Assembly (NCBI GenBank): GCA_951406725.2
Contig: OX597842.1
Location: forward strand, 7,254,001 to 7,318,000
Direction of reading: 5' to 3'
Source: Octopus vulgaris
Taxonomy: Eukaryota
Length of the DNA: 64,000 bases
Part shown: positions 1 through 52,997 of the stretch, piece after piece
How positions within the stretch are numbered: position 1 is the stretch's first letter
Layout: each line of letters starts with the position of its first letter
Notes under the pieces: model-generated
What the model was told of the DNA's origin: nothing
The model's input: only the letters and a program-made list of their open reading frames with translations
Database searches by the model: none
Position numbers and translations under genes: made by a program

Positions 1-3000
1 GGGCGGGGACCCTAATTCTAAAACCCTAACCCTAATTCTAAAACCTTAACCGTAAAGCTAAACGCACGAAAGATGTCATGACTAACAGTGAGAAACGAAA
101 TATAGTTGACGGCTGTAATTTTATTCAGCTGAATACACATCACTGATTTGTTGAAGGTAAAGATTCCATATAACTCGTCATGGCATTCTCCAGTTTCTCT
201 GGGTATTCTTACACATGTATGACCCCCACCACAGAATTTGTTGACTCGTAACTGTCAGAAAAAATGGATATTTTTTAACAAAAGTTTCCACAAATACACT
301 TTAGAGATCTTTTCGGTTTGGACGGCAGTTTTTTCTAGCGGTGTCATATGAAATTGACACCCATAATTATAACCCTAGTATCGATCTATTGCATTTCAAT
401 CTCTTTTAGGGTTAGGGTTAGGGGTGGGGAGAAGGGTATCTATTTTCTTCAGAAATGTAAATAAACCCAATCTGTTTCTTAAACGAGGGACATATTCATA
501 CGGCACAGACTGTTTTCACCTCAGATCCCACTTCAGATGGCATGGATGCCGATTACATCGGAATTTATTATATATTAAAAAAAAATTCCGAGTGTGGGGT
601 GAGGAGTTTTGGAAAATTCAAACGAAACAGTTTTCTTTATGGGTAACTTTAAGAAAAAAAAGCATCGTTTTTTAATGAAAACGAAAAATATCGATCTTCC
701 GCAGATGGTATACCAAAACTGGAACCATTTGGATGGCGATTTCCATAAAAATATGTGGTAATCTTGCATATATACACCCTCGCCGACTTTGTTGCCTAAC
801 TGTCAGAAAAGTAGATACTTTTCAATGAAATTTTCTACAAATCGCTTAGATTCTGTAGATTCAGAATATATAGGAATTTGTTGGAAAGAACTTTTCTGAA
901 GAGGTGTGGAAAGTTTCTGAAAATTCATACGACCCGACTTTTTTTCCTCATAACTTTTAGTAATTTAACGAATTGCTTTTTCAAGCGGTTTTTTTTTTTT
1001 GGATATTTCTTTTTAAAAAAATCTAAAATAATTTCTCGTTTTGTGTTGTTCTTGATTGCTTTTCATTCATCTATTCAAGAAATAACATAGAGGAGGCAAA
1101 CAAGTGCAGACAAAGGGATTAGTGTTGCATCATCTTCGAAGAACACCACAATCGTGTGACAAGTCGTTCCTACAACGACTACCTATCCTATAACAAATGT
1201 TCATACAATTTCGGCTGAAAGTTATTAAACAACGTAAAAAAAAATATTTATGTTGTTTAGAAAAAAAATTTATTTACTTAGTTTTAAAAAAATTATTTAC
1301 TTTGTGTAAAAAGTTATTTATTTTGTTTAAAAAAACCCAAGTTATGATGAGGTACCAAAGGTTTATGTAATTATGGGTATGATGGGGGTACTTGCCGTGT
1401 ATTTAAAAATTATTTATTTGTTTAGGAAAAAACCCTACATAGCACACTCGCGCTAGGTAGTGGTTGTAGGATCGACTAGCTAGCGCTAGTACGCGAGTGC
1501 GCGCACCGGGACCACTCTTCTTAAATAGTACCAATAATATTTCATAAAGCATGGATTAGATTCTGTAGTTTTAAAATTGGTTTTATGCAAGCAGGTATGT
1601 GTTTATCTATGCAGCCTGTGTATGGCTGTGGTGAGAGTTTTTCACCTCTTTTACTTTTTTCAGTAAAATACATATGCGAATGGTAAAAGAAAAACTATGG
1701 ATCTTACATTCGACGGATATTCGTCCTCATCTTGTTTGTTGTTAAGAGTGGTTAAGAGCACGGGCTACTAACCCCAAGATTCCGAGTTCGATTCCAAGCA
1801 GTGACCTGAACACTAACAATAATAGCATCGAAAAATACCCTTAGGAATGAGAACCCACGTTCGATGGAGGCTGGAGGGTATATCAGCCGAAACCTTGTGT
1901 TAACAACAAACAAGATGACAGGTATCCGTCGAATGTAAATAATGTACATACTTTCTCATCTCTTAAATATAGAACTGTAAAAAGCATTCAGTTTACGAAC
2001 TTTTTGCTTAAATCCCAGTAACAGGCCATGAAATGTGTTTATGGGGAAAAAATATTGAAAAAAATCGATACATCGGAGAACAAATAAACGATGACGGTAT
2101 GAGATTGTCGTGAGGGTGGGTGGGCACTGTCATGGTGCTAAAAGTTCCAGTCCTTAAACTACACGCCAAAAAATGTTTTCTTTTTCTTTTTTTAACAACT
2201 TCATAGTTACAAATTGCAAGATAAAATAAGGGTTTCTTACCTTCCTTCACTTAGCAAATAATTCCAGTCACTATTTGTGTACAAAAAATTGCAAGGGAAC
2301 CGGTCTATCGTACGTAGTGGGCGAAATTAAAATAGATGCAGCGATGTGTGCGCCTGTAGCGGTATCTGATATCCTCACTCGAACACACATACACAACACT
2401 TGCTAACACTCACAACCCTCTAATTTGTAAATAAAATCTTATCTTATCTCAAACAGTGGAACGGCTTGTCAACGTGCATCTATTTTCTGTTGGCATGGTA
2501 TTGTAAAAATAGTATCTATGGCTTATCTTATTTCGTTACGGATGCGATCGTGTGACTTACCTATGTCACCAACCTCCTCACATGCGGTCGTTTTTTTAAG
2601 AAATAACATGTGGTCGTTTTTTAAAGACATAAAATGCGGTCGTTTTTTAAAGACATAACATGCGGTCGTTTTTCCTACACGCCTTTCGTCACTTTCCAGA
2701 CTTGTCATAGCAGCCCGAAGTAACATAATCTTCCTATGTCGATGAGAGACGCCAACATGTGCCAATTTTTTCACACAATATCAAAACTTTATTTCGATTA
2801 TTAATAAATCCATAAATATTAAGTTCTGTTTAGCTTTGATTACTTTAGGAGTCTAATCAAAGCAAGAAAAAAAAACTATTGTGTAAATTTATTATATGAA
2901 ATAATGCTTTATATTTGTAGTTAGAAAGTTCCTATTTTTAGCAGAAATATTTTTCTGCATTGAAAAACTGAATTATTAAATAATTCTCAACATCGAGGGG

Positions 3001-3024
3001 TAGGACAAGGCACAGGCAGTTTAA

Positions 3025-4100
3025 CCCTTTCGTTACTATATTTCTGACCAAAATACACCCCTTATGTGTTTCAATTAATTTCTAACATAATCATAAATTT
3101 AGTCTGGCTTCATTAAACAACTATAACTTTTTTATTTATCAATATTTTATCTGATTTTTGGAAGATAATTTAATGAAATGTTCTCAACCAATTCTATACT
3201 ATAATTTTTGTCACAAGGTGACTCTAATTGCAGGTAGATACAGGTTAATTCAACAAAATATAAAATTATTAAATTTTTTTTCAAACATCGCTATAGAAAA
3301 TGGGTTATTAGCTAATATTCAATTGGGTATACAACAAAATTTTACGATAGAATTTGTTATTCTGGGTAACTTTCTGATACCCATAATAATATTTATGGCA
3401 AAATAGTCTGAATTTCATTTAAGGTTGTGGGAAACCACTAACTATCCTTTCTTTCGCTTTGTTTACATTTAGCGTAACGATTCGTTTCCGCCGTAATGAG
3501 TTCAAATAGACTCATCGGAAAAAGTAAAAAGAAATAGTCTATCACTTTACTCTCCTGGGAAAGTCTGTGGCTTGGTCCAGTTTCTTCAGAAAAATCACCG
3601 AAAGAAACAGTTTTAAATTTTCACTCCATTCAGGTGCCAATTCATTTTCTTTATCGCTGTCGGAGCTCTCGGATTCACTGTTTTCACTTTCGGAAAATGA
3701 AACATCAGATTCATTATCAAATACCACGTGCTTTTTTTTTTCAGTCATAGAGTTAGATTTATGAAGGTCTTCAGTAGAAAATCCTTCGAATTCTGACTCG
3801 CTGCTTGATATAATGAAATTCGTATCCATTTTTTGTCAGAATTACAAATTTTGAAAACACAATAGGAACAAATTTCGGAAAAAAATCTCCCAAAATTAAC
3901 GTAATTAAAATTACACTTTGATCGTTGTACAAAACTGTAGATGGACTGTTTACGAAGTATTATCACTTGTTTTCACGAATGTACTAAAGAGATTTGCTCT
4001 GATATTCTCATTTAAATATGAATAGGTAAATACGGGCGGGTTTGGTCACATTAACCAAAATTTCTTTCGGGCGGCTTTGGGCGGTTTGGTAACGAAAGGG
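3025..4100 (-). mobile_element. Non-autonomous piggyBac-like element
   Basis: TIRs CCCTTTCGTTAC / GTAACGAAAGGG flanked by TTAA and TTTAA; acidic remnant ORF (SESEFEGF...ESSDSD...EWS) like a piggyBac transposase N-terminus. Confidence 0.75.
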
Positions 4101-4802
4101 TTTAATACTAAAAATCTAGTAGAGATGATATCAAATTTAGGTTTAGACTACACCTAAAAATATATATTAACGATTTTATTTATTCCTTTCAGTATTTAAT
4201 CAATTTTTTTTATTGTGAAATTTCATTTTTCCTACCTTATTGCATGATTTTTAATTTGAAAAGAGATTCTTATTTTCGGTTTTAACCTTGAAACAAACTC
4301 TTTTATGGATTTTAACTTTTTGACAAAAAATTGCTTTATTTATAACCCATTACCTTTCATCTTTTACCTCCTTCAGTTTCTTTTGACCAAATCCACTGAC
4401 AAGTCTTTTGTCAGCCGAAGGATGAACTAGAAAACACTTTGCCCAAGGTACTGCTGTAGTGGGACTGAACCCAGGACCATGTGGTTGGGAAGCAAACTTC
4501 TTTCCCCACAGCCACGCCTGTGGCTATCTAACCTGATGTGTTTCCAGGAAGGAGAAAATACAATATTCATATTTAATATTTTTGGCAAATAGCTGGGAGT
4601 TGTATTCTAGTAAAGCACTGATGCATTCACTGTTTTTAGGTTAGAAATAAGCATTACTGAAAATAGAACCACATGGTCTAAGGTTCAGTCCCACCATGTG
4701 GCACCTTGGGTAAATGTCATCTACTATAGCATGGGTTGACCAAAACCTTGTGAAGGGATTTGGTAGGCAGAAACTGATGGAAACCTGTTGGATACACACA
4801 CA

Positions 4803-5693
4803 GGACCTTTTCCTTTTGAACGGTAGTTTTCAACACGATTTCTAGTTAACTAGACACTTTTAAACTTCGTATACTGGTAGAATGTGTCAAAATAAAACAT
4901 GTTTTGGATCTTTTCCTTTTGAACGGTAGTTTTCAACACAATTTCTAGTTTTCTAGACACTTTTAAACTTCGTATACTGGTAGAATGTGTTAAAATAAAA
5001 CAATTTTTTCTCTTGGCTTTCTTGAAAAAATTGTAATTTGTAAGTTTAACGAAGTTTAATTTTTCGAATTTTAACTAATCCTACGGCCTCTAGTGAGCTA
5101 CAATCATTTGCTGCACGTCTAAAACAGACAACATCCTGTCACTAACCCTCACCCCAAATTTTAGCCTTTCGGTTTATTTTTTCTTCATTGTTAAATTAAT
5201 TTAAGGATAACAATTAAGAAAAAAAAACGATAGCAATGGAAAATAATTTTAATTTAACAATTAAGAAAAAAAAACGAAAGCAAAAACTCAAAACAAAAAC
5301 AAAACGAATAATTTTAGACACACGCGTAACAATTAAATTAATTTAACAATTAAGAAAAAAAACGAAAGGCTAAAATTTAGGGTTTGGGTTAGGGGTGGTG
5401 AGAAGGGTATCTTTTTCTTCACAAATGTAAATAAACCCAATCTGTTTCTTAAACGAGGGACATATTCATACGGCACAGACTGTTTTCACCTCAATAGACG
5501 TCATTGATTGGTTAAAATTGCAGAAATCGAAGAAGAAAAAAAACAATAAATATCTTACAAACTATAGAATTCCCTCAATAAAGCCAAGAGAAAGAGATGT
5601 TTTATAAACACATTCTACCAGTATACGAAGTTTAAAAGTGTTTAGTTACGTGGAAATTATTTTTAAAAACTACCAGTCAAACCGAAAAGATCC
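4803..5693. mobile_element. MITE with long inverted arms (duplicate ~24833..25627; related pieces at ~306..520 and 50732..51420)
   Basis: GGA(T/C)CTTTTCC..TTGAACGGTAGTTTT ... AAAACTACCAGTCAAACCGAAAAGATCC termini; internal TAACCC/GGGTTA motifs. Confidence 0.65.
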
Positions 5694-5739
5694 CACTTCA
5701 GATGGCATGGATGCCGATTACATCGGAATTTATTATATA

Positions 5740-6127
5740 CTAGCAGTATTGCCCGGCGTTGCTCGGGTTTGTAAGGGAAATAACTATATAAGCATTTTTA
5801 GAGAGTTGTAGCCAAAAAATAGCAAAAAAATGCATTAAAATTGGAAAAAAAATGATGGTAATTTTTTTTTTAAATCGTTGACTCATCGTAGACATTTTTA
5901 GATAGTTACTTCCCTTATATAATAGCGAAAAAAATGCATTAAAATGGGAAAAATTGATGGTAAATTATTTTTAAAATCGTAGACACGCGCTAATACCCAG
6001 AAGGGCTCGATATGAATCACGACTATAAGATACCCAGTTTTGGTTAAACTGCACCGCAAAATGTGGGTGTAGTTAGGAATCTAAATCGTAGGAGACAGAC
6101 ACACAACCTTACTTTTATATATAAAGA
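5740..6127 (-). mobile_element. Short non-autonomous Helitron (duplicate 25674..26071)
   Basis: On the minus strand it starts TCTTTATATATAAAAG and ends with a CCCGAGCAACGCCGGG hairpin + CTAG. Confidence 0.8.
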
Positions 6128-6599
6128 TAAGGTTTCCAAGATTGGTAGAAGGGAGGGAAAGTGTCTCTCAAACTGAAGACTTGGTCTTGGTAAAAAAACT
6201 TCTCTGAAAATACAAGAAAAATAAAAAGGCCATGAGGAGTCGTATGGGATGCCTAAACCAAAATTTTGCCTTTTCTTTATAGATTCTTGAAAGGATGAAA
6301 GACAAAGTTGACCTTCGCAGGATTTGAACTCGGCGTACTGAGGGAACAAATTCTGCATGACATTTTATTGGATCCAGATAATTTACCTCATTGTTTATCA
6401 TTAAGGTAGGCCATGGTGGGATTTGAATTTGGAGCATTAAAAAGCAGAACTAAATAATCTTTTCTACTTTGGTTACGAGGCCTGAAATTTTCAGGAAGGG
6501 GGCAGATCAATTATATGGACCCTATTGCTTAACTCAGTGGTTCTCAACCAGGGTCCATATAAGGTGTTGTTATTAAAATTTATCTGCAATAAATTGCTT

Positions 6600-6810
6600 G
6601 GCTCAGTGGTTAGAGTGTCAGGCTTGCAATCATGAGGTAGTGAGTTCGATTCTTGGACTGGGCTGTGTTGAGCAAGACACTTTATTTCACATTGCTCCAG
6701 TTCACTCGGCTGTAGAAATTAGATGCAACTTCTCTGGCGCCAAGCTGTATTGACCTTTGCCTTTCCTTTGGATAACATTAGTGGCATGGAGAAGGGAGGC
6801 TAGTATCTAT
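6600..6810 (+). mobile_element. tRNA-head SINE, degenerate (duplicate ~26544..26755)
   Basis: GCTCAGTGGTTAGAG A-box, GAGTTCGATTC B-box, then SINE body GAGCAAGACACTTTATTTCAC. Confidence 0.6.
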
Positions 6811-8399
6811 GTTTGTTCCTTCTCGAGCCATGCCTGGCTCATATGGGCCGGTTTCCCGGTCTCTTGGCATATAGGATTCCCACCTGGACAGGACACCGGT
6901 CTGTCGCAGGTGAGCTGCAAGATGCAGGAGAAAAGAGTGAGAGGAAGTTGTGGCATAAGAGTCAGCAGTTCTTTTTAATGTTCCAAATTCAAATCCCACC
7001 ATGGCCTACCTTAATGATAAACAATGAGGTAAATTATCTGAGTCGGATGTCCTATTATAGCCATCCCTTATATATATATATATAGGGAAATGTGTTGTTG
7101 AAAATGCAGATAAATTTCAAAAACACGTAATTGTTTAAAATACATTTATTTTCAATGGTTAGAATTATTTACTTTAATAAAATAAAATAATTTATTTAAA
7201 AAGGTTAAACAACAATTTGGGAAGACGATAGTCGATACACAGTAGGATGGAATGTCGGAGTCGTGATCAGTGTGTAAGGACTAGTTCTTTGTTGATAGCC
7301 ATTATGTTTACATGAAAGAACGATGGTTGAAGTGGTGAAGAAAACATTTATCTACCGTTATGTTGAAAATACCTTACCTTGTCAGGTAAGTTATAAAATT
7401 TGAGAGCATGTGAAAGAAAGTTAGATGTGGTAGAATTTTTCTTTGTACAATTTTGTGTACATGTTCTCTTAGCAGTGAGCCACTGATAGCAATGGAATGA
7501 TTTTGTTAGGGAACAGATGTAGAGCTAGTGAAAGTGGTAGGGTTGTGGGATGTTGTCTCACAGTTGCTGACATTAAATTTCATTTCTCTTCCTGACCATT
7601 GTCTTTAGTACCTGCCATGATTGGGATCATGATTCTAGCGTTCCGTTCCCTAACTCATGGTAGCTGTCTCTGACTTGGTTGAGTTGTCACAAGCCAACTG
7701 ACTAACTGTCTTTTTGCTTGAGGTTCTTGCTTTTATAACTATCCAGGATAGACCTATCGTTGAGAACAATGTGCTTTGTTGGTGGTACTGTGATATCTCT
7801 ATTCTAGCTTTTGGTGAAGTAGAAGAGGTTAGAAAGGGTCAAGTGGTGAAGACATTATTTTGGCCTAGCTAAAGGCATCTGGAAAATGTAAAACTGCTGT
7901 CAGAGAGAAACCATTGTTCCATCATCATCATCACCATCATATAACGTCCGTTTTCCATGCTAGCATGAGTTGGACAGTTCAACCAGGGTCCAGGAAGCCA
8001 GGAGGCTGCACCAGGCTCCAGTCTGATCTGGCAGTGTTTCTACAGCTGGATGCCCTTCCTAACAACAACCACTCCGTGAGTGTAGTGGGTGTTTTTATGT
8101 GCCACTGGCACAGGGCCAAATGAGGCTGGCAACGGCCACAATTGGTTGGTGTTTTTTACGTGCCACCAGTACAGAAGCCAGTCAAGGATGACTGTGGTAC
8201 TGCTACGCCAGCCATTGGGTATGACTCCATCATGAGCTACCTGGTTTACAATTTGGGTGACCAGACAATAGCCCACGCCACAAGATGTTTTAAGCATCTC
8301 AGCAGTGAATCCTGATGGCCTCATCTGATTTTTGATTTGTTAAAATACTAAATACTGGTGACTTTTTTTTGGTGGTCAAGCTTGTCGTTCTGCTTATTG

Positions 8400-8640
8400 G
8401 CTTCCCTGTGGAAGTTAAGCTAGTTTGACCTATGTAGTCCCCACCACATCCTCCACATTTGAGAAAATAGATTAAGTTCTTCAAAGCACATTATGGTAAA
8501 AATTTGACTTGATTTAAATTTGTATGTTGAGCCCTCAAAGGGTAAGATGCAAGTTCCACAGTTGGGGCCGTTGTACTTTTTGACTTGTAATTTTTTTTCA
8601 AGTTCTTGGAGTCGCTTTTATCAGGTTTTAGGGATTTGAT
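8400..8640 (-). mobile_element. Penelope-like GIY-YIG endonuclease remnant (duplicate ~28447..28690)
   Basis: Frameshifted PNCGTC...EGSTYKFKS..IF then KNLIYFLKCGGCGGDYIGQT. Confidence 0.7.
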
Positions 8641-8714
8641 GCCATCGTGCAAATTATGGGGCACAAAAGAAAAAGCACCAACCAATCCTTTCTTGCGTGC
8701 TATACCAATTTTTT

Positions 8715-8857
8715 CTAGATTCTCCATAGGCTAATTATGATGAGAGCATAAAGGATGACTCCAGCAAAGAAGAATATGCAAAGGCTTATTGCTATACGCT
8801 CGCCATTGCTGAGTCCTTCTGATGTAGCAACTTTAAAATCTTTTGTTGCTTCATTAT
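8715..8857 (-). CDS. Paralogue A terminal exon: stalk + transmembrane helix + stop
   Basis: TTTTTTGCAG acceptor; phase-1 reading DNEATKDFKVATSEGLSNGERIAISLCIFFFAGVILYALIIISLWRI-TAG. Confidence 0.8.
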
Positions 8858-9482
8858 CTGCAAAAAATGAACAGTAAAGCATATATCTTTTGTTTTTGAT
8901 AATAAAGAAAAAATTGTAATATTTACCAGGATTTACTATTTTGCCACATACCGAAGTTTAGAAATAGCAGCCATAGAACCTTAGCTATTTCCTCTACTCT
9001 GGTATCCTTATCCCGTCCATACATTTGATTTTGCCTCTCTTCAAGACTAGCACACCACACTTCCTCAGTCCGAACTCCATTCTGATATCAGCACTGAAGG
9101 TAAATACTGTATCAACGAGGGAACTGACTTGGCTTCATAAAGTTTGAGGTCATCCGTGAATAACAAATGGTTGACTTTTTGTTGGTGGCTTTCGAATACA
9201 CACCCAGCTTTTGCTTTCCTCAGAATCAGTGTTAGTGGTATCAAGCACAGTACAAAGATCAGTGGGGACAGACAGTCCGTTTGGAAGATGCCCCTCCTGA
9301 TATCTACTGTCTGTAAACTTCTTCCATATGCTATCAGGTTCGTCCTCCCATTTGCCATACTTTTTCCAAGCAATCGCTCAACATTTGATGCAACCCTTCT
9401 GCTCACATGGCAGGACTCCATTTTTTCTTTTCCAGATGTTTGTACATTGACTCTGCAAGTATTCCAGTCAATAATTTCCACA

Positions 9483-9533
<51 letters not shown>

Positions 9534-11429
9534 GGCAGTGAGCTGGTAGAATTGTTAGCACACTGCACGAGATGCATTTTTGTCCATTGCTATGTTCCGA
9601 GTTCAAATTCTGCCGAGGTTGACTTTGCCTTTAATACTTTCAAGGTCAATAAAATAAGTACCAGTTGAACACTGGGGTCGATGTAATCGACTCATTCCTA
9701 CCTCCCCTAAGCTGCTCTTGTGGAATAATTTGAAATAAAAATACTAATTATAATCATTATTATTATGAACTTGAGGTCGTTTCCTGGCAGAATTGTTACT
9801 GCACCAGAAAATATATTCAATAGTACCAGCCAAATAGACTCAAATTGATGTAATCAAGGAACCTGAAACTGATGACCTTGTGCATGAATCAGAAAGAATT
9901 ATTATTGTTATTATTAGCAGAAGTCATTTCCTTACCTTCTATCCCAAGAGTAATAGTTGCATTACAGGAGTTCTTGTCATAGAATCTCCAAAACAAATCC
10001 TCTCTCGTTATATTCTCGATGTAGAGAATAGAAGTTCTATGAATCTGCCTAACTACATATTTGCCACGATCGCAATATTCCTTATTGCACTCGATACTAC
10101 GGACCCTATTTCTCCAGACCACAGGCCTTTCCATATAGGGAATATCTTTAACATAAAGAGAGATACTTTGTCCGAGCACAGGGTTTCCTGCAATAAATAT
10201 ATGAATCATTATTATTGACTAGTTTCCCATATGAAAGATTTCAGGATTCATTTTTATCATCATCATTGTTTCAACACCTACTTTTACATATCTGGAATCA
10301 GAGTTTTCTTTATATAAAGATTTGGGACACTTCCTCTCGTGATATCACAGGTGATTGTATAACAAAGAGCCAGGACATTAAATAATGACGGTCATGGTAG
10401 GTGAACTTCAAGTAAAATTGTATGAGTTAAGAGAAAAAAATAAAAAAACAGAACTGAAAAGATAGTGTCTAGTTTAAGATGAGAAAAAGGTACTCCACTT
10501 ACCTTTCAAAATACCTATTTTGTACTCTTTTTTACATTGCCAACCTATTCAAATAGAAAACAAAAATATTTTCAGATTTTAAATTTTTGATTACTCTTTA
10601 CTCTTTTACTTGTTTCAGTCATTTGACTGCGGCCATGCTGGAGCACTGCATTTAGTCGAGCAAATCACCCCCGGGACTTATTCTTTGTAAGCCCAGTACT
10701 TATTCTATTGGTCTCTTTTGCCAAACCGCTAATTAACGGGGACGTAAACACACCAGCATCAGTTGTCAAGCAATGCTAGGGAGACAAACACAGACACACA
10801 AACATATACACACACATACATATATATATATATACAAATTGAGATAGGGGTTGTAAATGAAACCCTCCATGTGATAACATATATCCAATATACTGCTAGT
10901 GAAGTACCCATCAAAGTTAATACATAAATGTTAAGAATTGCGATGCAATTAATTCATTTACTGTATTATATGGGCAAAGGTAAAATGTTTTACCACAAAT
11001 TAATAATACAAAATAAGAAAATGGAGAAATACATCTAAATCAATTATCAACTACCAGATAATACCCAATCACATACTTTATTAAACCACTACATAAGAAC
11101 ATTAAGGTCAAACATAATAATATAGAACAAAACAGTGTACATGAAGGAGTAATATGATACAATAAGTATAATATGTATAAGAGGATATAAATATACACAA
11201 CATCTTACAGCTGTTTCGGCCATGCAGATAATGGTGTCTCATTTTAGTTATATTATCCATGTGTGATAGGTCAATATGTAGTTATAAATGAGACATTTAC
11301 AAAAATATCCCAAGGCCTCTTCAGAAATTATGAAATACAAACCAAATTAAATCTACACCCATATAAGTGTGGGTACATACCCATAATATATCATGTACAC
11401 ATACATATGAGTGCATATACTCATACTCC

Positions 11430-11460
<31 letters not shown>

Positions 11461-13728
11461 ATAGATATACATGATAATATAAATAATATAAATCAATAAA
11501 CATACATATGTTCCATATTCAATGTTACAGTTTTTCAACTTAATATTTTGATATTACAATGTAGAAAACATACACATATTAATACCCAAATGCAGATATA
11601 CAGAGTCAAGAGTACATTATATTAATTTATATTTATTTCCAAAATGTCATTAACGTTAACAATGTTAACATCATTACCATTATCATTACCACTAATGCTA
11701 CCAATATCATTATTCTTATTATTAATAACACTAATACTAGCAAAACAACATATAGATCATATAGCAATATAATAGCAAAACCAAGGACAACAATAGTATT
11801 ACAGTACCATGCAAAGCATTAAATATCTGCATATACATACAAAATAAGAAATAAAAGCATATGGTTTACATGATATTATGTACCACAGGTGTACAAATGT
11901 ACATACGACTGCAATTTATAATTTCAACTGTTACACAAAAACAGTATTACGTTCAGAAATATTTAAGAATCGAACGCTAAAATATGATTGGCTTGTACAT
12001 TTAAATTTAAATAACAATTGTCTTTCTTTACGGTTGGTTTGTTAAGAAACATCCACACACGCACATTTGCAAACGTACGCCTAAACGCACATACACAGAC
12101 AAATCACAACTCAAGAGATACCAGGTCACACACACACACATGCTTACATACAAATCTACACACATGTTTGTGTTCTCCCAGTCAACAGCCTTATCATTGC
12201 TGGTACTTTAAACTCTTCGGTTGCATATTTGTGTGAATAAAATCGTTTTTCTTTGGAATAGGAAAAAAAAGTCTATCTTTATTTCTTCTTTTGCTGGTGT
12301 CTCAAATTTAGGTTAAATCAGTGTTTCTCAAAGGGGAGGCCTATGGGACGGTCGGACAAGTTGGCTTGAGAAAATTTGGTTTAAATGTTTGACAACTCAG
12401 CACCATCCATTGGACGGGGTGGGGGCGTTTTGCTTGTACATTATATAGTGACAGAAGGTATTGAAAATGTGATTATATGTTTGAACACTAAGACATCTGC
12501 TATTTTCATCATCATCATCATTCAAATATCCATTTAAATGGGTCATATAGAATATGTTTAGGTGGACAATAACGAAAAGGAGTGGGCTGAGGACTGAGCC
12601 TTGTTGAGCACTTACCTGTACACCAGATTCTTAGTTATACCTGTGGGTAACTCATGCAGACAGAGATATACATTAAATACAGTGACATAAGGTATTGAGG
12701 CTCTATGTTTAAACACTATTCTTTTACTTGTTTCAGTCATTTGACTGCAGCCATGCTGGAGCACCACCTTTAGTCGAACAAATCGACCCCAGGACTTATT
12801 CTTTGTAAGCCTAGTACTTATTCTATCAGTCTCTTTTGCCGAACCGCTAGGTTACGAGGACATAAACACGCCAGCATCGGTTGCCAAGCGATGTTGTGGG
12901 GACAAACACAGACACACAAACACACACATACATATATACGACGGGATTCTTTCAGTTTCCATCCACCAAATCCATTCACAAGACTTTGGTCAGCCCAAAG
13001 CTATAGTAGAAGACACTTGCCCAAGGTGCCATGCAGTGGGACTGAACCTGGAACCATGTGGTTTGTGCATGAATTAGAAAGAATTATTATTGTTATTATT
13101 AGCAGAAGTCATTTCCTTACCTTCTTCCTTCAAAGAAACCCTTGCATAGCGAGTTTTCTTGTCGCGGAAAGTCCAATCCACATCTGCCTGTGATATATTT
13201 TTTATCAAAATAGTGGATATATTTCCACTCTGCTGAACTTCTACTCTGCCAGATTTATAACATGTTGTATCACATTGAAAGCTTTCATTCACATTTGTCC
13301 AGGTAACAGGTCGCTCCATGCTGGGTATTTCTTCAGTTTGAAGAGTCATGTTTCCTCCAAGTACAAAACTTCCTGAAATAAATATATATATATATCAATA
13401 TTACAGACTAGTTTCCCATATGAAAGATTTCAGGATTAACTTTTCATCATCATCATTCTCTCAACATCCATTTTCTCCATGCTTGGGATCAAAATTCTCT
13501 TTATATACAATTCAAAACTCTTCCTGACATAATATCTCTCTTTTACTTGTTTCAGTCATTTGACTGCTGCCATGCTGGAGCACCACCTTTAGTCATGCAA
13601 ATCAAACCCAGGACTTATTTTTGTAAGGCTAGTACTTATTCTATCGGTCTCTTTTGCCGAACCGCTAAGTTATGGGGACGTAAACACACCAGCATCGGTT
13701 GTCAAGCGATGTTGGGGGGACAAACACA

Positions 13729-13776
<48 letters not shown>

Positions 13777-15007
13777 CATATATACGACAGGCTTCTTTCA
13801 GTTTCCGTCTACCAAATCCACTCACAAGGCTTTGGTCGGCCCAAGGCTGTAGTAAAAGACACTTGCCCAAGGTGCCACGCAGTGGGACTGAACCCGGAAC
13901 CATGTGGTAGGTAAGCAAGCCACTTACCACACAGCCACTCCTGCGCCAGACTATTGTATCCCAGACTATTGTATAACAAAGAGCCTGGGGATTAAATGAT
14001 GATGGTTATGGTTGGATTTCAAATAAAATTGTTAAAAATTATGTTAATCAGGAAAATTTAAAAACAAAAACATGACTATAAACTGAGGGAAGAGAAAGAA
14101 ATAAAAGAGAGAACTGAGAAGATAGTGTCCAGTTTAAAATGAGAAACAGGTTTCTTACCTTTTTTAATGATTTTGTAGACTCTTTCACATTGCGAGCCTA
14201 AAAGAGATGAAGACAAAAATATTTTCAAATTTTACATTTTTGAGTATTATTGTCGTCGTCATCGGCGGCATTTAATATCCGTTTTCCATGCAGAAATGAG
14301 TTGGACAGTTTAACCAGAGTTGACAAGATGGAGAGCTGCACAAGGCTCCAGTGGGATTTAGCATGCTGGGTGCTTTTATTTGGCACCACATGAGAGCCTG
14401 TTCATGGCACTGCCATGTGCTTTTTATGTGGCAATGGCACAGAAATCTTGCAGGCCAATCTTCTTCAGCAGGGGAGTGACCTTAACATATCTGCTGTGGA
14501 GTACGGCTCTCTTGAGTACAGCAAGGCCCCAGGCATTTTGCTTGTTTGTCATCTTGTCTGAAAGGCAAGTGGGAGTTGTAGGGTGTGGGACGTTGTCTCA
14601 CAGTTGCTGACAGTAAACCTCATTTCTCCCTCTGACTAAGGTTCATGAAGTATTTATTTACCGTCACGTTACAATACCTTGCTTTGACAGGCAGGTTATG
14701 ATAAATCCAAAAGCATGCGAAGAAAAGTTTGTGTTTGTGTTCTCTTCATTGTTTAGTAGTAAATACAGAAAGAGATAGAATGATATTGTAAGAGAACAGA
14801 ATTAGAGCTAGTGAGAGTTGTAAGGTGTGGGATGTTGTCTCACAGTTGCTGACAGTAAACTTCATTTCTCCCTCTGACTAAGGTTCTAGCTGGTCAGCCA
14901 ATACTGAAGGATTACCCACTAAAAAATAGAGCAAAAACAAATGAAAACTTACCATAAAAAATTGTAAACAAGGCAAAGAAGAAGAAGATGAATAGCTGAC
15001 TGTCCAT
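8715..15007 (-). CDS. Paralogue A: 260-aa type-I membrane protein with two atypical Ig-like domains; join(15007..14953,14197..14159,13372..13121,10544..10503,10187..9936,8857..8715)
   Basis: Assembled by hand. All introns are GTAAG...(Y)nAG, all phase 1, total 783 nt with no internal stop. Protein: MDSQLFIFFFFALFTIFYGSQCERVYKIIKKGSFVLGGNMTLQTEEIPSMERPVTWTNVNESFQCDTTCYKSGRVEVQQSGNISTILIKNISQADVDWTFRDKKTRYARVSLKEEGWQCKKEYKIGILKGNPVLGQSISLYVKDIPYMERPVVWRNRVRSIECNKEYCDRGKYVVRQIHRTSILYIENITREDLFWRFYDKNSCNATITLGIEDNEATKDFKVATSEGLSNGERIAISLCIFFFAGVILYALIIISLWRI*. Confidence 0.85.
9065..9483 (-). mobile_element. R4/Dong-like non-LTR RT fragment next to (TAA)n (duplicate 29109..29527)
   Basis: RRGIFQTDCLSPLIFVLCLIPLT...VNHLLF(T/M)DDLKLY. 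Confidence 0.75.
9936..10187 (-). CDS. Paralogue A Ig-like exon D2 (252 nt)
   Basis: ATTGCAG acceptor, GAAG|GTAAGG donor; 31/84 aa identical to D1 without gaps. Confidence 0.88.
10503..10544 (-). CDS. Paralogue A micro-exon 2 (GWQCKKEYKIGILK-G), 42 nt
   Basis: GAATAG acceptor, AAG|GTAAGT donor, homologous to micro-exon 1. Confidence 0.8.
10590..10820 (-). mobile_element. SINE 3' part (abundant family; duplicate ~30635..30870)
   Basis: CTCTTTTACTTGTTTCAGTCATTTGACTGCGGCCATGCTGGAGCAC motif recurs many times in the window. Confidence 0.75.
12720..13062 (-). mobile_element. SINE (duplicate 32820..33162)
   Basis: Same family, with part of the tRNA-like head (GGTTCAGTCCC B-box). Confidence 0.75.
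13121..13372 (-). CDS. Paralogue A Ig-like exon D1 (252 nt)
   Basis: ATTTCAG acceptor, GAAG|GTAAGG donor; motifs LGGNMTL, PVTW, CxxxC, STILIKNISQAD. Confidence 0.88.
13537..13946 (-). mobile_element. Full-length tRNA-head SINE in intron 2 of paralogue A
   Basis: Head GGCGCAGGAGTGGCTGTGTGGTAAG...GGTTCAGTCCC, internal (CA)n/(TA)n, family 3' end. Confidence 0.8.
14159..14197 (-). CDS. Paralogue A micro-exon 1 (GSQCERVYKIIKK-G), 39 nt
   Basis: CTTTTAG acceptor, AAG|GTAAGA donor, phase 1/1, open in both duplicates. Confidence 0.8.
14953..15007 (-). CDS. Paralogue A exon: ATG + signal peptide (MDSQLFIFFFFALFTIFY-G)
   Basis: TTTTTCAG|ATT-ATG acceptor, hydrophobic h-region, donor G|GTAAGT, 55 nt (phase 1). 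Confidence 0.85.
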
Positions 15008-15148
15008 AATCTGAAAAATAATTTTTAAAAAGAGTGAAAACTTGTTATCTCAGTCCCATCAATGGGAGGAACTGATAATATTTTAGGTCTTATTTTAACT
15101 CCTTTTATTTTCAGAATTTCAGTCCCAATGTCTTCTGATGTCACTTAC

Positions 15149-15200
15149 TCTCTCCTCCATTTCCCAAAACACAAAATAACAAGAAATATTCATGTCAGAT
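15149..15200 (-). other. Candidate 5' UTR exon of paralogue A (3' edge 15149; 5' edge unknown). The equivalent edge in paralogue B is 36486
   Basis: The ATG exon has an acceptor only 3 nt upstream, so an upstream non-coding exon is expected. The nearest consensus donor GA|GTAAGT is at 15148 and is conserved in both copies. Confidence 0.4.
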
Positions 15201-16152
15201 GTCTACTTAACAATCATGATGACATTGCTGTGGTATTTAACATTAGGTTATATATACGTGTATATATATAAAAGGCATCGTGTGTGTGTGCGTACGTGAA
15301 TGTAATTTATGCATGTCCACAAATTAGCAAGCATGTTGCTCTAATTTTAGGAGGACATTCGTCATGATCCTAGCTATATTTTCGTCAAATTATTTTACGT
15401 ATATTTCTAAGTGTATCTCTACTGATTTCCTATAGAATTTCAGGTAAACAGTGAATCTTATGATGTTTCATATTCAAATATGTTTATGTAAATGATGTTA
15501 TTAGAGACAGAAAAGATAGGTAATAGGTGTATGTACATATTTCGAGAGTTGTTGTCCTTTCATCAGCACCACATCCTACCCATCGACTATCCATGATGCC
15601 TAAAAGTGTTACACAGTGGGACTGAACCTGGAATCATGTGGTTGGGAAGCAAACTTGCTTGGTTTTAATAGTATTAAAATAGATTGTATTTGTATTTTAT
15701 GGTCAGATCAAGGATCTCATCAAATGCTGATGAAACCTGCTGCTCGAACCATGTAAACAAGTGAAGAAAATATATAGTGCATGTGTTTATTTGGCAAAAA
15801 AAATTTAAATAACCATCCTGAAATACAATATATATATATATATATATATATTAGAGAAAAACCACTATTATGCAATTCAAACAATGATAGACATAAACCA
15901 AATCATAAATAAAAAATAAAATATAGTTTAAAACATAACTAGATCACATTCATTTTTGTACTTTTTGTGATCTAGTTATATGTTTTATAATATATTTTAT
16001 TTTTTATCTATGATTTCGTTTATGTCTATCATTGTTTGAAGTGCATAATAGTGGTTTTCCTCTAATTTATAGATATTATATATTTATATTGTGAAATTTG
16101 ATTTAATACCAAATTGAATTTTTCCTTGTAAGTTTGGAGTTTATACTAAGAT

Positions 16153-19540: not shown

Positions 19541-22500
19541 TGTGTACAGTGCTCAGGTGCACTACAACTCATCTAAAGTGTATATATAATCAGGTGAAGT
19601 TTCGGCGGATTTCGGAAAGTCTTACATTGCTCTCTTATGGCCCAGAGGATGATGAAGAATAGTAGGGGGCTGGGAACCAACCCTTGGTAGACACTTACCT
19701 ATGCACTAAATTCATCAGTGTACTGTTACTATTATTTATGACAACCCTAACCCCAAAAACCTTAAAGGTAAAACCAGTACAAACGCACGAACGATGTCAT
19801 AACAGTGACAAACGAAATATACACGGAAGATAGTTGCTGTTGATAAACAAAAGCAGTAATTTTATTCAGCTGAATACACATCACTGATTTGTTGAAGGTA
19901 AAGATTCCATATAACTCGTCATAGCATTCTCCAGTTTCTTTGGGCATTCTTACACATGCATGACCCCCACCACAGAATTTGGGTAAAATTACAGATTAAC
20001 ACCCGCACGATTTTCACTAAGAAAAAAAAGACTCGGACTTTTTGCGTGGAATCAAGTACCCTGACCTCCTAATATGCTGCAAATCCCATATTTTGGTTCG
20101 GAATTGGTCCGGAGGGGGGCGGGGACCCTAATTCTAAAACCTTAACCCTAATTCTAAAACCTTAACCGTAAAGCTAAACGCACGACCGATGTCATAACTA
20201 ACAGTGACAAACGAAATATAGTTGACGGCTGTAATTTTATTCAGCTGAATACACATCACTGATTTGTTGAAGGTAAAGATTCCATATAACTCGTCATAGC
20301 ATTCTCCAGTTTCTCTGGGTATTCTTACACATGTATGACCCCCACCACAGAATTTGTTGACTCGTAACTGTCAGAAAAAATGGATATTTTTTAACAAAAG
20401 TTTCCACAAATACACTTTAGAGATCTTTTCGGTTTGGACGGCAGTTTTTTCTAGCGGTGTCATATGAAATTGACACCCATAATTATAACCCTAGTATCGA
20501 TCTATTGCATTTCAATCTCTTTTAGGGTTAGGGTTAGGGGTGGGGAGAAGGGTATCTATTTTCTTCAGAAATGTAAATAAACCCAATCTGTTTCTTAAAC
20601 GAGGGACATATTCATACGGCACAGACTGTTTTCACCTCAGATCCCACTTCAGATGTCATGGATGCCGATTACATCGGAATTTATTATATATTAAAAAAAC
20701 ATTCCGAGTGTGGGGTGAGGAGTTTTGGAAAATTCAAACGAAACAGTTTTCTTTATGGGTAACTTTAAGAAAAAAAAGCATCGTTTTTTAATGAAAACGA
20801 AAAATATCGATCTTCCGCAGATGGTATACCAAAACTGGAACCATTTGGATGGCGATTTCCATAAAAATATGTGGTAATCTTGCATATATACACCCTCGCC
20901 GACTTTGTTGCCTAACTGCCAGAAAAGTAGATACTTTTCAATGAAATTTTCTACAAATCGCTTAGATTCTGTAGATTCAGAATATATAGGAATGTGTTGG
21001 AAAGAACTTTTCTGAAGAGGTGTGGAAAGTTTCTGAAAATTCATACGACCCGACTTTTTTTCCTCATAACTTTTAGTAATTTAACGAATTGCTTTTTCAA
21101 GCGGTTTTTTTTTTTTGGATATTTCTTTTTAAAAAAATCTAAAATAATTTCTCGTTTTGTGTTGTTCTTGATTGCTTTTCATTCATCTATTCAAGAAGTA
21201 ACATAGAGGTGGATAACAAGTGCAGACAAAGGGATTAGTGTTGCATCATCTTCGAAGAACACCACAATCGTGTGACAAGTCGCTCCTACAACGACTACCT
21301 ATCCTATAACAAATGTTCATACAATTTCGGTTGAAAGTTATTAAACAACGTAAAAAAAAATATTTATGTTGTTTAGAAAAAAAATTTATTTACTTAGTTT
21401 TAAAAAAATTATTTATTTTGTTTAAAAAAACCGAAGTTATGATGAGGTACCAAAGGTTTATGTAATTATGGGTATGATGGGGGTACTTGCCGTGTATTTA
21501 GGTTGTTTAGAAAAAATTATTTATTTATTTTGTTTTGGAAAAAAAAACCTACATAACACACTCGCGCTAGGTAGTGGCTGTAGGATCGACTAGCAAGCGC
21601 TAGTACGCGAGTGCGCGCACCGGGACCACTCTTCTTAAATAGTACCAATAATATTTCATAAAGCATGGATTAGATTCTGTAGGTTTAAAATTGGTTTTAT
21701 GCAAGCAGGTATGTGTTTATCTATGCAGCCTGTGTATGGCTGTGGTGAGAGTTTTTCACCTCTTTTACTTTTTTCAGTAAAATACATATGCGAATGGTAA
21801 AAGAAAAACTATGGATCTTACATTCGACGGATATTCGTCCTCATCTTGTTTGTTGTTAAGAGTGGTTAAGAGCACGGGCTACTAACCCCAAGATTCCGAG
21901 TTCGATTCCAAGCAGTGACCTGAACACTAATAACATCGAAAAATATCCTTAGGAATGAGAACCCACGTTCGATGGAGGCTGGAGGGTATATCAGCCGAAA
22001 CCTTGTGTTAACAACAAACAAGATGACAGGTATCCGTCGAATGTAAATAACGTACATACTTTCTCATCTCTTAAATATAGAACTGTAAAAAGCATTCAGT
22101 TTACGAACTTTTTGCTTAAATCCCAGTAACAGGCCATGAAATGTGTTTATGGGGAAAAATATTGAAAAAAATCGATACATCGGAGGACAAATAAACGATG
22201 ACGGTATGAGATTGTCGTGAGGGTGGGTGGGCACTGTCATGGTGCTAAAAGTTCCAGTCCTTAAACTACACGCCAAAAAATGTTTTCTTTTTCTTTTTTT
22301 AACAACTTCATAATTACAAATTGCAAGATAAAATAAGGGTTTCTTACCTTCCTTCACTTAGCAAATAATTCCAGTCACTATTTGTGTACAAAGAATTGCA
22401 AGGGAACCGGTCTATCGTACGTAGTGGGCGAAATTAAAATAGATGCAGCAATGTGTGCGCCTGTAGCGGTATCTGTCACACACACACGAACACACAGACA

Positions 22501-23052
22501 CAAACACGTGTTGCATGCACACATACACAACACTTGCTAACACTCACAACCTTCTAACATTAACACCATTGTAAATAAAATCATTATCTTATTTCGAACA
22601 ATGGAACGGCTTGTCAACGTGCATCTATTTTCTCACATGCGGTCGTTTTTTAAAGAAATAACATGTGGTCGTTTTTTAAAGAAATAACATGCGGTCGTTT
22701 TTCCTACACGCCTTTCGTCGCTTTCCAGACTTGTCATAGCAGCCCGAAGTAACATTATCTTCCTATGTCGATGAGAGACGCCAACATGTGCCAATTTTTT
22801 CACACAATATCAAAACTTTATTTCGATTATTAATAAATCCATAAATATTAAGTTCTGTTTAGCTTTGATTACTTTAGGAGTCTAATCAAAGCAAGAAAAA
22901 AAACTATTGTGTAAATTTATTATATGAAATAATGCTTTATATTTGTAGTTAGAAAGTTCCTATTTTTAGCAGAAATATTTTTCTGCATTGAAAAACTGAA
23001 TTATTAAATAATTCTCAACATCGAGGGGTAGGACAAGGCACAGGCAGTTTAA

Positions 23053-24129
23053 CCCTTTCGTTACTATATTTCTGACCAAAATACACCCCTTATGTGTTTC
23101 AATTAATTTCTAACATAATCATAAATTTAGTCTGGCTTCATTAAACAACTATAACTTTTTTATTTATCAATATTTTATCTGATTTTTGGAAGATAATTTA
23201 ATGAAATGTTCTCAACCAATTCTATACTATAATTTTTGTCACAAGGTGACTCTAATTGCAGGTAGATACAGGTTAATTCAACAAAATATAAAATTATTAA
23301 ATTTTTTTTCAAACATCGCTATAGAAAATGGGTTATTAGCTAATATTCAATTGGGTATACAACAAAATTTTACGATAGAATTTGTTATTCTGGGTAACTT
23401 TCTGATACCCATAATAATATTTATGGCAAAATAGTCTGAATTTCATTTAAGGTTGTGGGAAACCACTAACTATCCTTTCTTTCGCTTTGTTTACATTTAG
23501 CGTAACGATTCGTTTCCGCCGTAATGAGTTCAAATAGACTCATCGGAAAAAGTAAAAAGAAATAGTCTATCACTTTACTCTCCTGGGAAAGTCTGTGGCT
23601 TGGTCCAGTTTCTTCAGAAAAATCACCGAAAGAAACAGTTTTAAATTTTCACTCCATTCAGGTGCCAATTCATTTTCTTTATCGCTGTCGGAGCTCTCGG
23701 ATTCACTGTTTTCACTTTCGGAAAATGAAACATCAGATTCATTATCAAATACCACGTGCTTTTCTTTTTTCAGTCATAGAGTTAGATTTATGAAGGTCTT
23801 CAGTAGAAAATCCTTCGAATTCTGACTCGCTGCTTGATATAATGAAATTCGTATCCATTTTTTGTCAGAATTACAAATTTTGAAAACACAATAGGAACAA
23901 ATTTCGGAAAAAAATCTCCCAAAATTAACGTAATTAAAATTACACTTTGATCGTTGTACAAAACTGTAGATGGACTGTTTACGAAGTATTATCACTTGTT
24001 TTCACGAATGTACTAAAGAGATTTGCTCTGATATTCTCATTTAAATATGAATAGGTAAATACGGGCGGGTTTGGTCACATTAACCAAAATTTCTTTCGGG
24101 CGGCTTTGGGCGGTTTGGTAACGAAAGGG
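23053..24129 (-). mobile_element. Duplicate of the piggyBac-like element
   Basis: Same TIRs and remnant ORF. Confidence 0.75.
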
Positions 24130-27009: not shown

Positions 27010-27128
<119 letters not shown>

Positions 27129-28761: not shown

Positions 28762-28904
28762 CTAGATTCTCCATAGGCTAATTATGATGAGAGCATAAAG
28801 GATGACTCCAGCAAAGAAGAATATGCAAAGGCTTATTGCTATACGCTCGCCATTGCTGAGTCCTTCTGATGTAGCAACTTTAAAATCTTTTGTTCTTTCA
28901 TTAT
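28762..28904 (-). CDS. Paralogue B terminal TM/stop exon
   Basis: As in A except one A->R change in the stalk. Confidence 0.8.
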
Positions 28905-29526
28905 CTGCAAAAAATGAACAGTAAAGCATATATCTTTTGTTTTTGATAAAAAAAAAATTGTAATATTTACCAGGATTTACTATTTTGTCACATACCGAAG
29001 TTTAGAAATAGCAGCCATAGAACCTTAGCTATTTCCTCTACTGTGGTATCCTTATCCCGTCCATACATTTGATTTTGCCTCTCTTCAAGACTAGCACACC
29101 ACACTTCCTCAGTCCGAACTCCATTCTGATATCAGCACTGAAGGTAAATACTGTATCAACAAGGGAACTGACTTGGCTTCATAAAGTTTGAGGTCATCCA
29201 TGAATAACAAATGGTTGACTTTTTGTTGGTGGCTTTCAAATACACACCCAGCTTTTGCTTTCCTCAGAATCAGTGTTAGTGGTATCAAGCACAGTACAAA
29301 GATCAGTGGGGACAGACAGTCCGTTTGGAAGATGCCCCTCCTGATATCTACTGTCTGTAAACTTCTTCCATATGCTATCAGGTCCGTCCTCCCATTTGCC
29401 ATACTTTTTCCAAGCAATCGCTCAACATTTGATGCAAACCTTCTGCTCACATGGCAGGACTCCATTTTTTCTTTTCCAGATGTTTGTACATTGACTCTGC
29501 AAGTATTCCAGTCAATAATTTCCACA

Positions 29527-29577
<51 letters not shown>

Positions 29578-30851: not shown

Positions 30852-30888
<37 letters not shown>

Positions 30889-31494: not shown

Positions 31495-31555
<61 letters not shown>

Positions 31556-36344: not shown

Positions 36345-36594
36345 AATCTGAAAAATAATTTTTAAAAAGAGTGAAAACTTGTTGTCTCAGTCCCATCAAT
36401 GGGAGGAACTGATAATATTTTAGGTCTTATTTTAACTCCTTTTATTTTCAGAATTTCAGTCCCTATGTCTTCTGATGTCACTTACTCTCTCCTCCATTTC
36501 CCAAAACACAAAATAACAAGAAGCTATTCATGTCAGATGTCTACTTAACAATCATGATGACATTGCTGTGGTATTTAACATTAGGTTATATAAA

Positions 36595-36851: not shown

Positions 36852-36942
<91 letters not shown>

Positions 36943-52850: not shown

Positions 52851-52997
52851 CTCCCGGCACCAGTTCCGCATACCCCCTGCCCATCCAAAGTACCTTGGAT
52901 CCCGGAACATCTCGCTGTGCTTGAGGAGACCTGTCGAGTCAAGTGCATATACATGAACATCGAACCAAATATCAATGGAAACAGTAGTTGTGATACC

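Follow-up and report, generated by a model that had tools for sequence, protein, structure and literature searches.

The 64,000-nt stretch of the Octopus vulgaris genome analysed here (contig OX597842.1, positions 7,254,001 to 7,318,000), referred to as the window, contains an intact octopus gene of 260 codons on the minus strand, denoted copy A. The gene consists of a signal-peptide exon, two cassettes that each combine a micro-exon with an immunoglobulin (Ig)-like exon (D1 and D2), and a membrane-anchor exon (Table 1). Both Ig exons have AG/GT borders and all cassettes are phase 1-1. No cytoplasmic tail is encoded: a short stalk and a transmembrane helix are followed by the stop codon. The window also holds a second gene, copy B, and the two copies could be two haplotypes of one locus assembled in tandem. 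The Octopus sinensis protein LOC115225395 (P0005) was identical, gap-free, to copy A at 225 and to copy B at 232 of 260 positions. Both P0005 and the gene models of the window include D1 and D2.

Table 1 Exons, shared intronic blocks and dispersed repeats of the two gene copies (window positions).
Feature	Position	Strand	Remark
Signal-peptide exon, copy A	14953..15007	-	ATG at 15007; matches N-terminus of P0005
Micro-exon 1, 39 nt	14159..14197	-	AG/GT borders; carries a Cys
Intron flank after micro-exon 1	14083..14158	-	65 matches/11 mismatches to flank after micro-exon 2
SINE-like dispersed repeat in D1 cassette intron	13540..13948	+	Copy A only; 85-87% matches to window copies
32-nt block, D1 side	13406..13437	-	34-65 nt upstream of D1 acceptor
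Ig-like exon D1, copy A	13121..13372	-	252 nt, phase 1-1
58-nt 3' flank of D1	13063..13120	-	Homology to D2 flank stops at 3'-truncated SINE-like repeat 12716-13062
Micro-exon 2, 42 nt	10503..10544	-	29 matches/10 mismatches to micro-exon 1
Second high-copy dispersed repeat, decayed end	10254..10289		Depth peak and loose ends; common to D1 cassette
32-nt block, D2 side	10217..10248	-	30-61 nt upstream of D2 acceptor
Ig-like exon D2, copy A	9936..10187	-	252 nt
58-nt 3' flank of D2	9878..9935	-	20 low-copy donor-proximal nt and 38 nt of repeat tail
Old, internally deleted dispersed-repeat copy	9765..9915	+	Its (ATT)n tail is the distal part of the flank
Stalk and transmembrane exon	8715..8857	-	Ends in stop; helix 232-259 in model
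Copy B, intact, 260 codons	28762..36344	-	20 kb from copy A
Copy B, signal-peptide exon	36290-36344	-
Copy B, first micro-exon	35738-35776	-
Copy B, D1	35318-35569	-
Copy B, second micro-exon	30547-30588	-
Copy B, D2	29980-30231	-
Copy B, transmembrane exon	28762-28904	-

To characterize the encoded protein, we used an alignment-based AlphaFold model of P0005 (mean pLDDT 83). Both domains are predicted to adopt an Ig beta-sandwich fold of the V/I-set: the VIA structure comparison matched both to CD8aa (Z 9.8, rmsd 2.6 over 89 residues), with V-set and I-set rows tied for each, and the best Foldseek E was 2e-7. Micro-exon 1 is predicted to be the source of the first strand of domain 1 (strand E28-31). 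A C-strand tryptophan (W56) is conserved, and the cysteines that are conserved form a CX3-4C pair (C65, C69), while no B- or F-strand cysteine for the canonical B-F disulfide was found in the alignment. With this pair instead of the B/F cysteines, the protein is an atypical member of the Ig superfamily. Among 24 proteins the best Pfam Ig match, to I-set, was 23.6 bits against a curated cut-off of 23.7 (13.1 bits for D1), and a sequence search of the PDB returned only CD2 (E 0.47). Matches to Pfam YafO (E 0.014, below cut-off) were dismissed.

The intron edges of the two cassettes were found to be alike and their exons divergent, as a sequence-only reading had proposed, reversing the usual pattern of conservation. 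The 58 nt following each Ig donor differ at one position (57/58), and the 32-nt block preceding each Ig exon is exact (32/32), also in copy B at 30261 and 35601. The micro-exon flanks are likewise similar, sharing a motif at 10451 and 14111 that recurs at 30495 and 35690. D1 and D2 share only 31 of 84 residues when the split codon is counted (30 of 83 whole codons) and 56% of their nucleotides. The differing 44% corresponds to a corrected divergence of about 0.67, compared with 0.21 for the intron, a value that leans low because the scoring took in just the alignable parts.

The cassette intron could be aligned throughout: in its seven intronic segments 346 columns matched and 60 did not, and outside the two blocks there were 252 matches and 57 mismatches (18% different). 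When the 60 mismatches were shuffled over the 406 columns, a perfect 32-nt run arose in 27% of shuffles, a 58-nt window with at most one mismatch in 2.8%, and both together in 0.36%. The 32-nt block alone is thus within chance, but the pair is beyond it. A search of Rfam returned only two mir-297 matches, which lie on an (AT)n run and are far below the gathering score.

Silent sites of the exons were also found to be diverged. A codon maximum-likelihood comparison of D1 and D2, based on 83 codons and a one-ratio model, gave dS 1.43 and dN 0.70. The resulting omega of about 0.5 indicates that the excess of exon divergence extends to silent sites. Fixing dS at the intron value of 0.21 was rejected (p=5e-9), as were 0.42 (p=1e-4) and 0.6 (p=0.006), and 11 of 27 degenerate codons that encode the same residue in both exons differ. 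Flank divergence therefore does not track synonymous exon divergence, with dS about 1.4 in the exons against 0.21 in the intron and 0.03 in the blocks.

Part of the shared flank derives from a dispersed repeat. The distal 38 of the 58 nt (9866-9916) represent the terminus and (ATT)n tail of a high-copy element. In each cassette this remnant lies at the same base, 20 nt away from the donor. The element beside D2 differs by 22% from a neighbouring copy at 9525-9764 (107 matches, 30 mismatches; 0 of 300 shuffles as good). The SINE-like repeat at 13540..13948 is absent from the D2 cassette. We searched four sequencing runs with 9790-10590 as the only query, and over this entire query most matching records were less than 90% alike (119 of 164 in run X1, 153 of 218 in run X3). 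The D1 and D2 flanks, in comparison, differ at 1 of 38 repeat-derived sites. The suspicion that the flanks are a common dispersed repeat is thus correct where 10254-10289 and 38 of the 58 nt are concerned. It was nevertheless rejected as an explanation of the 57/58 identity because most other copies are less than 90% alike.

Among like copies the exons vary, mostly by amino-acid-changing differences and in a patchwork, while the adjoining intron barely does. Copies A and B diverge by 4.4% in exons and 1.3% in introns, about a 3-fold difference. Nonsynonymous changes in the Ig exons (19/390) exceed non-coding changes (188/14184, p=3e-6), silent divergence (3/108) is not significantly above the non-coding level (p=0.18), and omega is 1.34, not above 1 (p=0.64). 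In two DNA runs, contigs (records 7 and 23; joint 9938-10206) carry both flanks around an unlike stretch that replaces the exon; two further contigs (records 6 and 22) cease matching at the first base of the exon. In two DNA runs, micro-exon 2 and its intron were covered by a single contig that differed at 1 of 372 nt, and the D2 exon in the same two runs had 15 listed variant sites, none of them silent when read singly. Of 33 pooled sites, 3 were silent (p=0.052). Positive selection on the Ig exons is therefore no more than suggested. Four-gamete incompatibility was observed in 10 of 21 informative site pairs in D1 and 6 of 21 in D2, from 4-5 protein sequences of automatic gene models, and these conflicts could reflect recurrent mutation. 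In raw-read run X22, 12 partial reads matched, none inside the exon, too few for copy number. Run X11, presumed to be RNA, gave an unspliced contig over both flanks with no splice joint and is uninformative on expression or intron retention.

To place the two cassettes among their relatives, we examined database proteins. The named octopod relatives are all "uncharacterized" or "hypothetical" and carry no recorded function in the matches obtained. Five gene models (P0007, P0010, P0012, P0027, and P0037, two of them named O. bimaculoides) read through the donor into translated flank. Their domains are only 29-63% identical to D1 or D2, yet the same flank follows, although the tails were picked by a pattern favouring similar tails. 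The five models fall in five sub-clades of one 21-row clade, in which no other clear donor read-through was found, and a single residue of the tail (M or I) is distributed in conflict with the exon tree, as judged from 15-residue tails only. Another model, P0023, likewise ends in the flank that follows micro-exon 1 (0 of 2000 shuffles as good). D1 and D2 have separate outgroups, P0007 and P0012, respectively, indicating that the D1/D2 split is old.

We propose, with a probability of about 0.5, that introns are homogenised by gene conversion in a tandem cluster while the exons are kept apart by selection. An old internal duplication would have given rise to D1 and D2, and the intron edges are likely near-identical because gene conversion copied intron DNA between the repeated cassettes. 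Conversion tracts confined to the intron would drift freely, and those entering an exon would be purged or would stall at its divergent border. Like-with-like exchange between tandem gene copies, together with diversifying selection, may then reshuffle variants among D1 exons and, separately, among D2 exons. In that case the flanks would be no dedicated switch but a by-product of ectopic recombination and a substrate for it. Blocks of 32-58 nt are short for gene conversion, and the low divergence of the micro-exon-to-Ig introns between A and B and the many annotated isoforms fit constraint. A comparable pattern is described for the human red/green opsin genes, in which introns undergo gene conversion and divergence is highest at exon 5 (Fawcett and Innan 2011, PMC3924837). 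There, as here, introns of tandem paralogs are closer than the exon between them, an outcome attributed in that account to conversion and selection. The octopus case differs in that domain cassettes within one gene, as well as a multi-gene cluster, are involved, the exons have diverged much more deeply (dS about 1.4), and only short blocks are near-identical.

The main rival, a possible but tentative one, is that the blocks are splice-regulatory elements (a branch-point zone, a downstream enhancer and a micro-exon enhancer), including an exapted repeat tail, held by purifying selection and serving alternative use of micro-exon and Ig cassettes. D1/D2 identity is highest immediately next to the exon, the position at which splice elements lie: one block precedes the acceptor by 30-61 nt, the other adjoins the donor, and the flank is kept in O. 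bimaculoides models. Models of the family omit micro-exons or Ig exons, a single gene is annotated with 16 or more numbered isoforms, and between A and B the introns that join micro-exon to Ig exon show little divergence (2/497 vs 1.4%, p=0.07). Against this, the similarity is not restricted to short motifs: roughly 400 nt of intron, two decayed repeat ends among them, differ far less than the silent sites do. The flanks also tolerate damage. In other cassettes the upstream flank is only about 76-81% alike and the 32-nt block carries substitutions and indels. In copy B about 2 kb is inserted within the D1 3' flank with the reading frame intact, about 0.6 kb is missing beside the D1 32-nt block, and the D2 flank carries a substitution. 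The suggestion of splice-selection elements survives as a candidate, but block-to-block pairing was no stronger than in shuffles in any of the four pairs tested (fractions 0.41-0.95). In Dscam1, mutually exclusive Ig exons are selected by pairing between a docking site and selector sequences. Duplicated Ig exons and conserved intronic elements are common to both, whereas the octopus gene models join D1 and D2 in a single reading frame, and the four pairs tested showed no complementary pairing.

An unlikely alternative is that the flanks serve as homology arms for exchanging entire Ig exons from one cassette or gene to another, whether in germ-line or somatic cells, and so build up a combinatorial receptor repertoire. 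The phase 1-1 cassettes, similar flanks bracketing different exons, the differing number and order of domains in family proteins and the patchwork variation among like copies are consistent with such swapping. Exchange between D1 and D2, as earlier suggested, is not supported: each exon keeps its position in all four gene units (A, B, P0005 and the complete unit of P0004, a small sample of germ-line assemblies), and the exon alignment shows no recent exchange patch, with identity flat at 9-14 per 21 nt. P0007, moreover, carries a D1-type exon (63% identity) linked to the same signal and to micro-exon 1. Brown-algal ROCO LRR genes (PMC3341825) likewise have uniform same-phase exon modules in candidate receptors, rearranged between duplicated loci. 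Exon order there is visibly recombined between recent duplicates, unlike the D1/D2 order, which is unchanged between copies. We regard as quite doubtful the broader idea of a clustered hypervariable octopod Ig receptor family, built of uniform micro-exon and Ig cassettes, whose intron edges are recombination arms swapping whole recognition exons, possibly somatically, as a diversified-receptor system of cephalopods in immunity or self-recognition.

It is also quite unlikely that the duplication is young (about 0.2), with the exons evolving faster through positive selection and a higher coding or silent mutation rate, and the perfect blocks reflecting chance and splice-site constraint. The roughly 3-fold exon/intron ratio recurs in A vs B and D1 vs D2, and a 32-nt run arises readily by chance. 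Rapid exon change following a recent duplication is nevertheless rejected as the sole cause because silent sites also diverged, and the A/B silent divergence and the separate outgroups likewise argue against this reading. Snake venom families, including ASSET, look alike in having conserved introns and accelerated exons (PMC2711939), as do conotoxin genes (PMC3862624). In these accounts introns are more than 85% similar and exon segments strongly different; the products are secreted toxins, whereas the octopus gene encodes a membrane Ig protein with a D1/D2 omega of about 0.5. Since opsin and venom genes already show introns more alike than exons, the pattern does not constitute a new mechanism. 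Finally, it is very improbable that the 3' flank is kept because donor read-through encodes a short tail and stop of a secreted isoform: the sole D1/D2 difference swaps one stop codon for another and five models end so, but the stop is missing in P0037 and P0027, the D2B tail has an amino-acid change and the D1B tail an insertion, the tail derives from a repeat, and this reading does not account for the 5' flanks.

The gene probably encodes a variable recognition receptor of the cell surface, with immune, self/non-self or neural roles as candidates. Members of the Hydractinia Alr family (PMC9546547) are likewise diverse single-pass proteins encoded in a cluster; they have 1-3 atypical Ig domains without the B-F disulfide and undergo alternative splicing. 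Alr domains are encoded by single exons and are followed by an Fn3-like region and cytoplasmic tails. The octopus gene, in contrast, builds each domain from a micro-exon and a 252-nt exon, has a CX3-4C loop and no tail, and lacks an Fn3-like spacer after the Ig domains. No sequence relationship between the two families was found. We found no description of the octopus family in the literature searched, though gene-family tables of genome papers may list it, and the main text of a 2025 review of invertebrate IgSF proteins does not contain "octopus", "cephalopod" or "squid" (PMC11999971).

These results flag a tandem cluster of uncharacterised, atypical Ig-like octopod surface proteins, apparently undescribed, fast-varying and likely to be recognition receptors. 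The shared flanks offer a direct handle on it: primers or baits placed on them could capture the divergent exons cluster-wide. Recognition exons that vary between gene copies and individuals while the surrounding DNA is nearly fixed are typical of arms-race or self/non-self receptors.

The gene lies on the minus strand, where six exons of copy A, with AG/GT at every inner border, join into a 260-codon open reading frame. In order, they encode the signal, micro-exon 1, D1, micro-exon 2, D2, and a stalk and membrane helix before the stop. D1 and D2 are Ig-like exons of 252 nt, each forming a cassette with its micro-exon and the intron between them. The product matches Octopus sinensis LOC115225395 (P0005; P-numbers denote database protein models of relatives) at 225/260 residues without gaps, indicating that the window is octopus DNA. 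Copy B, intact and about 20 kb away, diverges by 1.4% overall (214/14916) and may represent either a genuine tandem duplicate or a second haplotype. Two units are fused in the O. vulgaris model P0004.

Features of the window, in window coordinates
Feature	Position	Strand	Remarks
Copy A	8715-15007	-	
Copy B	28762-36344	-	
D1; D2 (copy A)	13121-13372; 9936-10187	-	
Micro-exons 1; 2	14159-14197; 10503-10544	-	
Post-donor flanks, 58 nt	13063-13120; 9878-9935		
32-nt blocks	13406; 10217		
Micro-exon flank motif	14111; 10451		
Dispersed repeat, end and (ATT)n tail	9866-9916		
Dispersed repeat, decayed body	9765-9915		22% different from neighbouring copy
Second repeat, end	10254-10289		
Tandem duplication, 16-18 kb	1-15842; 20117-38090		1.4% divergent; several copy-specific insertions/deletions; either a genuine duplicate or two haplotypes
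Inverted repeat	15840-16076		just upstream of copy A; 98-nt arms, 92% complementary
Insertion, ~2 kb	33213-35286		within D1 3' flank of copy B
Tandem repeat, 107 nt	33719-34203		in that insertion
Element	34897-35287		in that insertion; inverted at 5739-6128, 25673-26072
Decayed retroelement-like	38332-41481	-	G+C-rich; by eye, pieces resembling reverse transcriptase and nuclease; 39271-39978 without Pfam match
Decayed retroelement-like	~44300-46000	-	LINE-like frame flanked by (GATA)n arrays
Array, 67-nt unit, 4.5 kb	52997-57480		most copies about 99% identical; dispersed-repeat origin; may partly be an assembly effect
100-N gap	57481-57580		ends the array
Exons of separate gene	60218-60616; 63700-63999	+	canonical Ig domains, strand opposite to D1/D2 gene; Pfam I-set E 1e-13, Ig_3 E 2e-8

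The sequence-only reading had described near-identical flanks around dissimilar exons, and this feature is real. The post-donor flanks of D1 and D2 agree at 57/58 positions, the 32-nt block upstream of each Ig acceptor matches exactly and the micro-exon flank motif recurs, while the exons share 30/83 residues and 56% of bases (52% at third positions). Cassette similarity extends past the blocks: seven hand-picked intronic segments, with a SINE-like insertion in D1 left out, gave 346 matches and 60 mismatches, and intron divergence without the two blocks was 18%. Shuffling these columns often reproduced the 32-nt run by itself (27%), seldom the 58-nt block (2.8%), and the two jointly in 0.36% of cases. 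A one-ratio codon model over 83 codons gave dS 1.43 and dN 0.70 for D1/D2 and rejected dS fixed at 0.21, 0.42 and 0.6 (p 5e-9, 1e-4 and 0.006). Degenerate codons with the same residue differed in 11/27 cases. In a domain tree of 71 rows and few columns, D1 grouped with P0007 and D2 with P0012, both well supported, which indicates that the D1/D2 split is old; D1 and D2 as sisters were weak (93/58). Fast protein change following a recent duplication, one of the explanations earlier proposed, is therefore insufficient, as far as a one-ratio estimate from 83 codons allows.

We aligned contigs and reads of four sequencing runs to 9790-10590. Summed depth at 9866-9916 was about 30 times that of the exon in two DNA runs, and dozens of contigs continue into unrelated DNA past 9916. 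This stretch is the end and tail of a dispersed repeat. Low copy number is confined to the 32-nt block and some 20 bases next to the donor. Repeat-derived flank bases differ at 1/38 between D1 and D2; most aligned records are <90% alike.

Similar flanks are found elsewhere in the family. The check proposed by the sequence-only reading, whether the flanks bracket different Ig exons, thus received a partial answer: they do. Contig records 7 (DNA run X1) and 23 (run X3) keep both flanks around an unlike stretch replacing 267 bases, and in records 6 and 22 the upstream flank matches up to the exon's first base; identity over these upstream flanks is about 76-81%. In five of the database gene models the reading frame continues past the Ig donor and terminates in translated flank. 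Their preceding domains show 29-63% identity with D1 or D2 and 33-51% among themselves, and all five models fall in the 21-row clade containing D1 and D2. P0023, from the other clade, terminates in translated micro-exon flank (0/2000 shuffles).

The pattern repeats on a small scale. Between copies A and B, 22/504 Ig-exon bases differ, against 1.3% of non-coding DNA. Of these differences 19 alter the residue (p 3e-6 vs non-coding), and omega (1.34) was not significantly >1. In the two DNA runs, micro-exon 2 and its intron (10219-10590) form a single contig with one difference. The D2 exon falls into several contigs that vary at 15 listed sites, none of them silent when read singly; one would be a stop if read alone and co-occurs with a neighbouring change, as in copy B. 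Pooled with the A/B differences, and leaving aside letters that other cassettes, repeats or unrelated raw reads contribute to this stretch, variants occupy 19/252 exon sites vs 1/358 upstream (p 4e-7). Variants among four D1 and five D2 proteins are patchwork-like, with 10/21 and 6/21 pairs incompatible, respectively.

The best fit, an inferred one, is concerted evolution, in which intron DNA would be homogenised between repeated cassettes and selection would keep the Ig exons apart. Such a process would account for silent exon sites being older than both the bulk intron and the repeat-derived bases, and for the tolerance of flank damage such as the insertion in the flank of D1B (D1 of copy B) and the deletion beside its block. 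The main rival, splicing constraint on the blocks, draws on their shortness, their placement where splice elements would be and the skipping of micro-exons and Ig exons in family models; it may act alongside conversion. Swapping of exons via the flanks is unlikely, as D1 and D2 hold their positions in 4/4 units and their exon alignment contains no recent patch.

Concerted evolution of introns with exons held apart by selection is reviewed for red/green opsins (PMC3924837), and our case would work the same way. The likeness to venom genes is in appearance (PMC2711939, PMC3862624). The octopod family is reminiscent of Hydractinia Alr but fails Alr's defining features (PMC9546547). On the tests run, the locus does not look like a Dscam-type array.

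A model from a 30-row alignment predicted two Ig sandwiches (pLDDT 83), the first strand being supplied by the micro-exon. The domains have a CX3-4C pair, are without the B-F disulfide and score below Pfam cut-off. Both micro-exons encode Cys. D2, P0007 and P0012 have an additional Cys close to where the domain ends; its absence from the window's D1 suggests that D1 may carry an unpaired Cys, through which dimers could possibly form.

The family is large: clustering at 50% leaves 26 representatives. Of 24 profile-search hits, 23 were named, all from Octopus or Argonauta; these relatives are all uncharacterised or hypothetical, and many lie on contigs of a single length within a species. Atlas neighbours were unnamed mollusc clusters and V-set families, so distant relatives beyond octopods are possible. 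P0006 and P0031-P0042 have 1 to 5 Ig domains per model, with micro-exons or Ig exons skipped and, in several, near-identical tandem domains; isoform numbers of LOC115225115 reach X16. Our search of mainly open-access literature found no account of this hypervariable octopod Ig family, which is apparently undescribed. A tail-less, variable Ig receptor suggests a possible role in recognition or adhesion.
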